Positions 43,197 through 57,005 of a DNA stretch of 64,000 nucleotides are shown here, in pieces. The DNA is taken from the NCBI GenBank assembly GCA_963771045.1, contig CAVYRW010000004.1, forward strand, positions 704,001 to 768,000, in the 5' to 3' direction. The notes under the pieces are model-generated. The model did no database searches. It was not told where the DNA came from and saw only the letters and a program-made list of their open reading frames with translations. Made by a program: the position numbers and the translations under genes. The DNA comes from Waddliaceae bacterium. GTDB taxonomy: Bacteria; Chlamydiota; Chlamydiia; Chlamydiales; SLFE01. Position 1 is the first letter of the stretch. Each line of letters opens with the position of its first letter.

Positions 43197-43350
43197 TTGG
43201 GCCATGCTGAGTGGTCTTGCCTAACAGCCTCAAAAATACTTCTTGGTTTAATCATCAAGTTTATTGGTCCAAATCATTCTCTCGTCATGATTATCGATGA
43301 TACGCTGGAACGGAGGAAAGGAAGAAAAATCAAGGCTAAAGGATATTATT
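43197..43350 (+). pseudogene. IS701-like DDE transposase fragment, repeated at the start of each tandem unit (also ~46318, ~49569, ~53310)
   Basis: WSCLTASKILLGLII...MIIDDTLERRKGRKIKAKG resembles the DDTxERRxGxKIxAKG segment of IS701-like transposases. Confidence 0.65.
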
Positions 43351-43390
43351 TTGAATTTTTCATAATCGATATTTTCAGCAAATTTTCCGT

Positions 43391-43491
43391 AATACTTTTA
43401 ACGCAGGGACGCGTCGTCGCTGAGGTTGTCATTTTTTTCCTCAATTGTTCTCTAAGACCTTGCGATTCCGTGTTCCTGCGTTAAAAGTATT
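43391..43491. repeat. Palindromic element family C upstream of repeat genes (units 1, 3, 4; deleted in unit 2)
   Basis: aatacttttaacgcagg ... cctgcgttaaaagtatt 17-bp arms. Confidence 0.75.
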
Positions 43492-43588
43492 GCAAAGATT
43501 ATTTCACGGGAATTGATTTATAAAGTCGAGCCTTGATAATAAAATGATTCCAGTAGTATTATATTCGACAAACAGAAGGAGAAAAAAC

Positions 43589-53299: not shown

Positions 53300-53692
53300 A
53301 GGGTGCGGGGCTGAGTGGTCTTGCCTAACAGCCTCAAAAATACTTCTTGGTTTAATCATCAAGTTTATTGGTCCAAATCATTCTCTCGTCATGATTATCG
53401 ATAATACGCTGGAACGGAAAAAAGGAAGAAGAATCAAGGCTAAAGGATATTATTTTGAATTTTTCATAATCGATATTTTCAGCAAATTTTCCGTAATACT
53501 TTTAACGCAGGGACGCGTCGTCGCTGAGGTTGCCATTTTTTTCCTCAATTGTTCTCTAAGACCTTGCGATTCCGTGTTCCTGCGTTAAAAGTATTGCAAA
53601 GATTATTTCACGGGAATTGATTTATAAAGTCGAGCCTTGATAATAAAATGATTCCAGTAGTATTATATTCGACAAACAGAAGGAGAAAAAAC

Positions 53693-56600
53693 ATGTTGCA
53701 TGATATTTCCGAAATGAAACCGACGACAATGCTTATCGAAAAGCAAGAAGGTTCCTCTGGCGGTTATTCGATTAGCAAGGTTCATAACGAAATTCATCAA
53801 TTAGCCAATAAGATCTTATCAGAATGTGATCGGTCAGAAACAAAAAAAATTGCAAATCTTGTCTGTTCATTGTCTGAATCATTTTTATGCGAGAATAGTT
53901 CAAGGGACCGGACCCAACAAATAGAATCTGTTTTTTATTCCATACAACATATTACAGACGATCGAGAAGCAATTATTGGATTAGCAAAAGGATTGCTGAC
54001 GGAAGGGATGGGTGGCTATTCAGTCCGCTATATTCTTGAAGGGATTAATGCTTTAGATAAAGACGATCGGGAAGCCATTGCTGGATTAGCAAAAGGATTG
54101 CTGACGGAAGGGATGGGTGGCTATTCAGTCCGCTATATTCTTGAAGGGATTAATGCTTTAGATAAGAACGATCGAGAAGCCATTGTTGGATTAGCAAAAG
54201 GATTGCTGACGGAAGGGATGGGTGGCAATTCAGTCCGAGATATTCTTGAAGAGATTAGTGCTTTAGATAAGGACGATCGAGAAGCTATTGTTGGATTAGC
54301 AAAAGGATTGGTGACGAAAGGGATGAATGGCTATTCAGTCTGCGAAATTCTTGAAGAGATTAGTGCTTTAGATAAGGACGATCGAGAAGCTATTGTTGGA
54401 TTAGCAAAAGGATTGGTGACGAAAGGGATGGACAGTCCTGATGTCCGCAATATTCTTGAAGAGATTAGTGCTTTAGATAAGGACGATCGAGAATCCATTG
54501 TTGGATTAGCAAAAGGATTGCTGACGGAAGGGATGAATGGCTATTCAGTCCGCGATATTCTTAAAGGGATTAATGCTTTAGATAAGAACGATCGGGAAGC
54601 CATTGTTGGATTAGCAAAAGGATTGGTGACGAAAGGGATGGGCAGTTCTGATGTCCGCAATATTCTTGAAGGGATTAATGCTTTAGATAAGAGACGATCG
54701 GGAAGCCATTGTTGGATTAGCAAAAGGATTGCTGACGGAAGGGATGGGTGGCAATTCAGTCCGCTATATTCTTAAAGAGATTAATGCTTTAGATAAGAAC
54801 GATCGGGAAGCCATTGTTGGATTAGCAAAAGGATTGCTGACGGAAGGGATGGACAGTTCTGATGTCCGCAATATTCTTGAAGAGATTAATGCTTTAGATA
54901 AGAACGATCGAGAAGCCATTGCTGGATTAGCAAAAGGATTGCTGACGGAAGGGATGGGTGGCAATTCAGTCCGCTATATTCTTAAAGGGATTAATGCTTT
55001 AGATAAGAACGATCGAGAAGCCATTGTTGGATTAGCAAAAGGATTTGTTACGGAAGGGATGGATGGCTATTCAGTCCGCAATATTCTTAAAGGGATTAAT
55101 GCTTTAGATAAGAACGATCGGGAAGCCATTGTTGGATTAGCAAAAGGATTGCTGACGGAAGGGATGGATGGCTATTCAGTCTGCAATATTCTTGAAGGGA
55201 TTAATGCTTTAGATAAGAACGATCGGGAAGCCATTGTTGGATTAGCAAAAGAATTTGTAACGGAAGAGATGAGTAGCAATTCAGTCTGCAATATTTTTGA
55301 AGGGATTAATGCTTTAGATAAAGACGATCGAGAAGCCATTGTTGGATTAGCAAAAGAATTTGTAACGGAAGAGATGAGTAGCAATTCAGTCTGCAATATT
55401 TTTGAAGGGATTAATGCTTTAAAAGACGATCGAGAAGCCATTGTTGGATTAGCAAAAGAATTTGTAACGGAAGAGATGAGTAGCAATTCAGTCTGCAATA
55501 TTTTTGAAGGGATTAATGCTTTAAAAGACGATCGAGAAGCCATTGTTAGATTAGCAAAAGAATTTGTAACGGAAGAGATGAGTAGCAATTCAGTCTGCAA
55601 GATTCTTGAAGGGATTAATGCTTTAGATAAAGACAATCGAGAAGCCGTTGTGAACAATTTAAAGCCTTTTATAACACTCATGGCAAAAGTATCATTTATC
55701 AAAATTCTTTTTAATCTAAGTACTAAAACTCTTAAGGATGAAGAGGAACCTCAAGGCGAATCCAATGATAAATTACTTATGGTATGCGATAAGATGCTAG
55801 ACAATGAAAAAAATGGTAAAATGGTTTCCAAGGTGTCCAGATTGATTTTAGAAAACCTTGAATATTTTGGTTTATGCGAGGAAAGCCCCATCGTTCAAAA
55901 GGCGATTACAAGAAAGATTGATACGAAAAATCTCTCCGATCCCAAAAATAAGTATGTTGTCTACAAATTTCTTTATGACTCTCAGAAAAATGAACTGCCG
56001 GATCTTTTATTAAAACCCTCTGAGAATGGTTTAGTTTTAAATCCGCATGCCTTTTTGTCTATCGCCAGGCTTCCCAAAAGCCGCGATCTTCCAAAAAATA
56101 TCTCTCCTAAAGTCTTAATAAACCTGTTTGATAACTGTCAACTCAGTGATAAGAAATGCCGAGAGATCACGGCTAATTCCTTATCATTTTTAAGGAAGAA
56201 TTTTACACAAGATAAGCATCTTGCCAAGTTGCTCTCTCCATCGAAAAATAAATATATTACTTTGGCAGCATACCAGTTTTCATGGCTTATCCACTACGTC
56301 AACAACCTTCCCGATGAAAGCCGCGATGAGACGCTGCTGCAGCATTCGGCATCTATACAGATGTGTCCAAAAGGAAAAGAGGAGGGGATTGCCGCTATTT
56401 TTCATACCCTCCCGCTAGACTCGAAAGGCCTTTTGTATGCCAACTCAAACGGGCATGAAGCCGTTCGGTCTATTCTTCAATCTGTTATCAATCAGATTTT
56501 GTCATCGGAATCCTCTTTTATGATTGAAATGACTGGTAAAGAGCCCCCCATTGCTGAACTTGCGCATCAATCGACTTTTCTCAGAAACCTAATTGGAAAT

Positions 56601-56933
56601 AAAGTGGGCTTAGAAACCCCTTTATGCTTTGACGAGCACACCAGTCAAATTACTGATGCTCTGATCAAACGTTCTTTTAAAGAGGTTTACACCAGTTTCT
56701 TCAAACACCTGACTCCTAAACTGTTGATCTCGAAGTTTTGCCTGTTTGTTAATCGTGATATAGCATCCGACAAGACATTGTATTCACATTTGACCGCTTT
56801 AATAGATGATTCGGATATAAATAAAGCCTGGAAAATTGAAGGGAAAAACGTTTTTCTCACCGAATTCGGAGCTTCCGTTATCTTGAAAAAAACGAAATTA
56901 ATTTATGCTAGTGATCCATCAACTTTGTTTTGA
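53693..56933 (+). pseudogene. 35-aa repeat protein copy 4 (16 repeats; one +1 frameshift at ~54692)
   Basis: ORFs 53648-54775 and 54729-56933; extra base in gataagagacgatc. Confidence 0.85.
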
Positions 56934-57005
56934 AGGGTGCGGGGACGAGATTGTTGCGGATGGGCAAAGCACCGAAATCTAGAGAAACCTAATAAAGCTT
57001 CTGAA

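Follow-up and report, generated by a model that had tools for sequence, protein, structure and literature searches.

A four-unit tandem array in a Waddliaceae genome joins 35-residue repeats to a near-uniform C-terminal domain with a predicted NEL-like core

The window, a 64,000-nucleotide stretch (C4:704001-768000) of the genome of a Waddliaceae bacterium, contains four head-to-tail units that start at 43206, 46318, 49569 and 53310 and end at 56944. Each unit carries a gene with a block of 105-bp repeats, which encode 35 residues apiece, ahead of a C-terminal domain. The genome (G000) is 2.57 Mb in 5 contigs and 90.6% complete, and the window DNA is matched in soil metagenome runs belonging to one study; no RNA run is among the matching runs listed. 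Its gene order, together with the named hosts of relatives in its phylum, marks the bacterium as an environmental chlamydia. The parts of the array are as follows.

43206..46317, + strand: unit 1, with linker, gene 43589-46307, 11 repeats (43853-45005) and a capping repeat; 4 frameshifts as assembled
46318..49568, + strand: unit 2, with a shortened linker, an exact 350-bp duplication (46496-47195) and an intact gene
46865..49558, + strand: copy 2 protein, an open reading frame (ORF) of 897 aa; the AlphaFold model shows a disordered stretch of about 25 residues, then 3 helices, 12 repeats of 35 aa with two helices each (47129-48391) and the C-terminal domain
48392..49555, + strand: C-terminal domain, 388 aa, unnamed family with a predicted NEL-like core; invariant Cys709 (48989-48991), Gly712, His776 (49190-49192), Asn783 and Asp798 (49256-49258)
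49569..53309, + strand: unit 3, with gene 49952-53299, 17 repeats (50216-51997) and a capping repeat; 2 frameshifts as assembled
49569..49951, + strand: inter-gene linker, amplified together with the gene; it holds promoter-like sites, a purine-rich stretch resembling a ribosome-binding site and a decayed transposase fragment (Pfam DDE_5, below cut-off at E 7.6e-4)
53310..56944, + strand: unit 4, with gene 53693-56933, 16 repeats (53957-55631) and a capping repeat; 1 frameshift as assembled

The four-unit tandem repeat structure is far beyond chance. A preliminary description of this DNA had counted 11, 12, 17 and 16 repeats, 56 in all; a count by hand also gives 56 units, and Tandem Repeats Finder gives 11.2, 12.0, 17.2 and 16.2 copies at 85-91% matches. 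The near-uniform C-termini that it reported are also there: over the final 1181 bp the copies are 2-5 nt apart, which leaves 4 variable amino-acid positions. The termini are, however, less than fully constant: at the N-terminus, copy 1 differs from the other copies at 13-14 of 264 nt. Nor are there four coding units as assembled, since a single open frame is present only in copy 2. A degenerate capping repeat unit is present in copies 1, 3 and 4; copy 2 is without this unit and without the acidic linker (about 45 aa). The inter-gene linker before the copy 2 gene is about 186 bp shorter than the others, and the exact 350-bp duplication precedes copy 2 and gives rise to a truncated extra N-terminus. 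Promoter-like sites in the linker number 5, compared with 2.3 ± 1.8 by chance, which is not significant.

Repeat number differs between the copies, as first described, but fresh shuffling of repeat order in every copy is not borne out. Copies 3 and 4 are largely colinear, with three unit pairs identical in DNA and units 2-6 mutually nearest neighbours. Copy 2 was enlarged by internal duplication (units 4/5, 7/9 and 8/10). The 45 clean repeat units include 42 that differ in DNA and 40 that differ in protein. The variable positions include 19-22 in the loop and 24, 25, 28 and 29 in the second helix, among others.

The AlphaFold model of copy 2 (mean predicted local distance difference test score 84.4) places a 12-repeat solenoid ahead of the C-terminal domain, and the 35-aa repeats are predicted to form a two-helix solenoid. 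The repeat lies outside known families, in line with the preliminary description: Pfam TAL and PPR do not match copy 2 at E<=1, and PPR is not found in 39 relatives. NCBIfam returned nothing over cut-off on copy 2, and a sequence search of solved structures returned generic helical repeats only. The Pfam matches of copy 2 are driven by the repeats alone (PrkA is over cut-off on 41 residues) and were rejected as composition artefacts. The top viral fold match is a Terrestrivirus protein (E 0.026, TM 0.29). A 571-aa protein elsewhere in the genome (G000:C4:2232240-2233955) consists almost wholly of the same repeats (13 scored) and lies among three paralogs that by eye have an F-box-like N-terminus; it is possibly an adaptor without a catalytic end. 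Degenerate repeat copies or a decayed C-terminal domain occur at G000:C4:2124732, 2138840 and 22298-24106 and at C2:47488-48210.

The C-terminal domain is the most informative part of the protein and was not identified in the preliminary description. It belongs to a family of at least 355 divergent members, one of them from a cultured amoeba symbiont, for which neither Pfam nor NCBIfam has a model. A word-based homologue search gave no more than the proteins of the window itself or one relative already known, and a motif search of viral contigs returned no family relative. Literature searches, which covered mainly papers outside subscription journals, listed no description of this domain or repeat; the supplements of PMC4209131 could list the family as hypothetical.

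The motif of the family is CxxG. Aspartate stands at Cys+2 in 1 of 146 sequences, so the Cys-x-Asp of classical NEL ligases is not the family pattern, and the putative catalytic motifs are kept in all four array copies. Pfam NEL (PF14496) has no match in copy 2, in 39 relatives or anywhere in G000, and profile-profile comparison gives P 0.03-0.06. The core is almost all helical, the only matches that span it among those listed in fold searches are NEL ligases, and it is predicted to resemble the NEL domains of SlrP and SspH1. Among the analogies offered in the preliminary description, that with leucine-rich repeat (LRR)-NEL effectors is the right one. No protease fold and no SidC (SNL) row is present among the matches listed in four fold searches, and Pfam HECT has no match in the window protein or in G000.

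Two paralogs in the same genome, of 943 aa (G000:C4:958878-961709) and 888 aa (884973-887639), are the only rows among 151 without both the invariant Cys and His, and from their sequences they are probable pseudo-enzymes. G001, a relative of G000, has an orthologue of the 943-aa paralog. Two other chlamydial genomes hold tandem pairs of diverged family members (L084:5038-11393 and L085:4668-8975), and tandem duplication therefore recurs in the family.

The repeat and the C-terminal domain each occur with other partners. Sixteen regions chosen from search hits, mostly repeat-only matches, include repeat proteins that end in Pfam HECT at L078 (over cut-off), at L083 (below it) and twice at L086 (well over). 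The repeat protein of L077 ends in a second CxxG domain, and those of L079, L080, L081 and L089 end in nothing recognisable. A repeat profile built from the window only supports L077, L078, L081 and L083; L086 requires the iterated profile. As controls, the window-only profile scores 15 of 5,227 six-frame ORFs of G000, of which nine belong to the array and six lie outside it, and the iterated profile scores none of the 63 ORFs from NEL loci. The link to HECT is not exclusive: the 30 best HECT loci, whose sequences were cut short, gave 21 HECT ORFs, and 2 of these carry the repeat. At L073, leucine-rich repeats stand ahead of an array-type C-terminal domain. In these arrangements the repeat thus behaves like a swappable, putative targeting module for proteins of the cysteine E3 type, and the C-terminal domain like a swappable, putatively catalytic end. 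This partner swapping, repeat with HECT and C-terminal domain with LRRs, is the strongest argument for a ligase.

Other chlamydial ligase-type domains were recorded alongside. Pfam HECT is present in 39 of 251 chlamydial genomes (28 over cut-off) and in none of 14 controls, and many of these proteins have a C-terminal H-x-C motif. The loci, by Pfam match, are:

L078:2582-6127, chlamydial HECT locus
L083:2979-6041, chlamydial HECT locus
L086:2338-4485 and 4580-6133, chlamydial HECT pair, adjoining an RNA polymerase beta-prime gene
L112-L141, further chlamydial HECT loci

A 2026 review (PMC13720258) states that no counterparts of HECT have been identified in bacteria, and the chlamydial count bears on that statement. 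The second, unnamed C-terminal domain of about 230 aa (L077:4968-5678, L093-L111) has an invariant C-x-x-G-K-x-x-R-L and is a candidate for another cysteine ligase. Of the 251 chlamydial genomes, 16 carry this domain, and in some cases it stands behind the 35-aa repeat of the array. Classical NEL domains (L039-L068) are common in environmental chlamydiae: 50 of 200 genomes have them, with as many as 13 in one genome. The main text of a review of NEL ligases (PMC9320238) does not contain the word 'chlamyd'.

The evidence points to a candidate chlamydial effector in which a variable repeat block is mounted on a fixed C-terminal domain and changes by gain, loss and exchange of repeats, as the preliminary description had proposed. 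We favour, at slightly better than an even chance, the interpretation that the array is a recently inserted, tandemly amplified repeat protein gene whose C-terminal domain is a type III-secreted E3 ligase with a remodelled NEL-type fold and whose repeats bind the substrate. Genes of the type III export-gate family and a secretin are present in the genome. The unstructured N-terminus would serve as the secretion signal for export by the type III system, and the helical solenoid would bind a host protein substrate through positions 19-22, 24, 25, 28 and 29. Ubiquitin would pass from a host E2 to Cys709, forming a thioester, and His776 and Asp798 would stand in for the aspartates of classical NEL ligases. 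Slippage within copies and unequal exchange between them would vary repeat number and surface and leave the catalytic end the same in all copies. A soil protist is the probable host. The array protein probably represents an undescribed family of injected ubiquitin ligases, and its repeats would select the host proteins to be tagged.

The LRR-NEL ligases (IpaH, SspH1/2, SlrP and NopM; PF14496) share with the array protein a signal-like N-terminus, a variable number of repeats for substrate binding and a near-identical C-terminal domain that is helical (by prediction in the array protein) and has one catalytic cysteine (putative in the array protein), according to PMC9320238. They differ in having CxD where the array protein has CxxG with invariant His, Asn and Asp, in matching a 223-position Pfam model that the domain of about 388 aa does not match, and in using LRRs in place of helical 35-aa repeats; the array protein is also tandemly amplified. 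A wider reading, which we hold as a tentative and rather doubtful possibility, is that of a new class of transthiolating E3 with a NEL-derived fold and Cys-His-Asp chemistry, which would share with true HECT ligases of bacteria, across symbionts of protists, a plug-in solenoid of 35-aa repeats. The four-gene, 56-repeat accordion would then be a natural DARPin-like library that retargets one ligase.

The leading alternative, unlikely in our assessment, keeps the secreted repeat-plus-enzyme design and gives the Cys-His-Asp domain another chemistry: it would be an acyltransferase, a deamidase, a transglutaminase, or a protease such as a deubiquitinase. A triad of Cys, His and Asp typifies cysteine proteases and OTU-like enzymes in amoeba-associated bacteria (PMC11696984), and the NEL aspartates are missing from the C-terminal domain. 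In the same available text of PMC9320238, IpaH3 without the CxD aspartate retains only E2-ubiquitin hydrolysis, so a ubiquitin-discharging enzyme is possible. This alternative has to account for the almost wholly helical core, for fold matches that include no protease among those listed and span the core only in NEL ligases, and for HECT as the repeat's other recognisable partner. A Cys-His-Asp triad can also serve ligation, as in the SidC-family ligases (PMC10746214, from partial text). SidC and SdcA (SNL) of Legionella use such a triad for ubiquitin transfer (PMC10746214), as the Cys, His and Asp of the array protein would, but their catalytic domain is N-terminal and is followed by a lipid-binding domain, as far as the available text of PMC13720258 goes, and they have no repeats.

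A further alternative, which we regard as improbable, accepts the family as real and takes the array for a neutral or decaying amplification, or for one partly inflated by assembly, so that the true number of copies would be below four or copy 2 alone would be functional. It draws on the frameshifts. Seven of the 56 repeat units are out of frame, each by plus or minus one base (copy 1 units 2, 4, 6 and 9; copy 3 units 5 and 6; copy 4 unit 7). The 5,873 bp of repeats should hold about 0.8-1.0 frameshifts from background (P about 1e-4), where the background of 20-25 breaks per 143 kb is a hand count from the G000-G001 comparison. All seven lie inside repeats, and the roughly 6.1 kb of coding sequence outside the repeats is free of frameshifts, a distribution that, with the putative catalytic motifs retained in all four copies, speaks against general decay. 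Frameshifts here need not be real because the assembly is error-prone: it breaks 15 of 117 genes common to G000 and G001, including rpoB (G000:C4:769048-772816), which is split by a frameshift. With G001 as the checked genome, 13 of 126 genes are broken, although this reverse comparison is not a clean control, many of the 13 being truncated ORFs of G000 itself. The frameshifts are uncorrected errors in repeats or real slippage, and errors are probably the explanation for most.

The exact 350-bp duplication resembles an assembly join, and the locus is rich in insertion sequence (IS) debris, both of which favour decay or inflation. However, 42 of the 45 clean units differ in DNA, in copy-specific runs, and the C-termini have small private differences; the copies are therefore not collapsed duplicates. 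The contigs of a soil short-read run, X1, which may be the same sample as the assembly source, match the array at 99% or more in 33 of 38 cases. They fork exactly at the unit end, where one path leads to the next unit and the other to the unique exit, and a 403-bp contig runs from a C-terminal end through the next linker into an N-terminus with zero differences. The head-to-tail junction therefore exists in the DNA. The preliminary description had named mis-assembly of one locus as a possible refutation; the short reads uphold the junction and leave the copy number of four without support from depth, which is 4.2-5.4 over the C-terminus and 4.1 over the exit piece. Among the short-read pieces listed, none spans a frameshift or the junctions and oddities of copy 2, and stretches without short-read cover are uninformative. 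One X1 contig runs from the array end through a direct repeat into the left end of an IS, which could be an excised circle, a tandem copy of a 15.6-kb segment or a low-depth chimera.

TAL effectors and TALE-likes share with the array near-identical tandem two-helix repeats of 33-35 aa, constant ends and repeat recombination; the array repeats are acidic, with no single variable di-residue and no sequence or convincing structural match to TAL. TAL effectors end in an activation domain, whereas the array protein has an enzyme-like C-terminus. A TAL-effector-like or PPR-like reader, with one repeat per nucleic-acid base and a C-terminal domain that modifies chromatin or RNA-bound proteins, is very unlikely. 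In its favour are the 35-aa two-helix repeats with a variable inter-helix loop and weak Foldseek rows to dHax3 (E 0.042, TM 0.13-0.20), BurrH and mTERF1; TAL is not among the top 50 matches listed in two other fold searches. Pfam TAL and PPR do not match, and variation is not confined to one di-residue.

The evidence does not establish a dedicated diversifying system: the assembly breaks three of the four copies, copy 4 is nearly colinear with copy 3, and tandem arrays of repeat effectors from environmental chlamydiae were known before. The LRR/TPR and F-box/BTB families of Parachlamydiaceae (NEX1/2 and PEX1/2) share the combination of repeat and ubiquitin-related module, tandem arrays and birth-and-death evolution, and differ in having LRR or TPR repeats and adaptor domains (PMC4209131, from the text available). 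An array of repeat-plus-ubiquitin-module genes is therefore not new in itself. The words NEL and IpaH do not occur in the main text of that paper, as available. The bacterial cysteine-type ubiquitin ligase classes given in the accessible part of the 2026 review are HECT-like, NEL and SidC-type, and few are known (PMC13720258). If the array protein is a ligase, its family would add a chemistry to the NEL fold. The array is the youngest-looking family member seen: its 56 repeats are near-identical, and the positions at which they vary point to the likely binding surface. The array allows repeat shuffling to be tested directly against effector targets and is a possible scaffold for targeted protein degradation.

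The array lies in 15.6 kb inserted between a chemoreceptor-like gene and an enoyl-ACP reductase gene and absent from four relatives. In G001, G002, G003 and G005 nothing separates the third of the chemoreceptor-like genes from the gene for enoyl-ACP reductase, and G004 has a different upstream gene. GC content is 38-39% at the insertion and 45-52% in three neighbouring genes. The features that flank the array are:

41382..41511, + strand: direct repeat, left copy (126-130 bp), in the tail of the third chemoreceptor-like (MCP) gene; 96% identical to 57006-57131; site empty in G001
41504..41554, - strand: IS91-type (rolling-circle) end remnant, resuming at 42849-42966 past the interrupting IS; 79-93% identity to the ends of other copies in the genome
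41555..42848, + strand: IS with a DDE transposase (ORF 41626-42834; Pfam DDE_Tnp_1 and DDE_Tnp_1_assoc), presumably ISAs1-type; 31-bp inverted ends, 9-10 bp target duplication, further genomic copies
42849..42966, - strand: second piece of the IS91-type remnant, including a decayed transposase fragment whose translation matches the intact IS91-type transposase
42998..43169, no strand: palindromic dispersed repeat of 172 bp, miniature inverted-repeat transposable element-like; 79% self-inverted, 131 blast rows in the genome
57006..57131, + strand: direct repeat, right copy, just upstream of the enoyl-ACP reductase gene (57146-58042)

An intact IS91-type copy in the genome carries Y2_Tnp and Zn_Tnp_IS91. 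Given the known behaviour of IS91/ISCR elements, capture by a rolling-circle element with integration by homology would account for the direct repeat. Unequal exchange would then have amplified and homogenised the array. The recA gene was not found in the G000 assembly, but its G001-type neighbours are missing there too and 4 of 5 relatives have recA; therefore, no conclusion is drawn on RecA dependence.

Upstream of the insertion, window positions 34789-41492 hold three tandem MCP/HAMP chemoreceptor-like genes that are also present in 4 of 5 relatives (not in G004 at the same site). Genes two and three are frameshifted in the G000 assembly, and gene one is frameshifted in G001. Window ORFs 23973-25463, 29824-30567, 30590-31330 and 390-1379 have no Pfam match at E<=1e-6, and the first three are conserved in G001.

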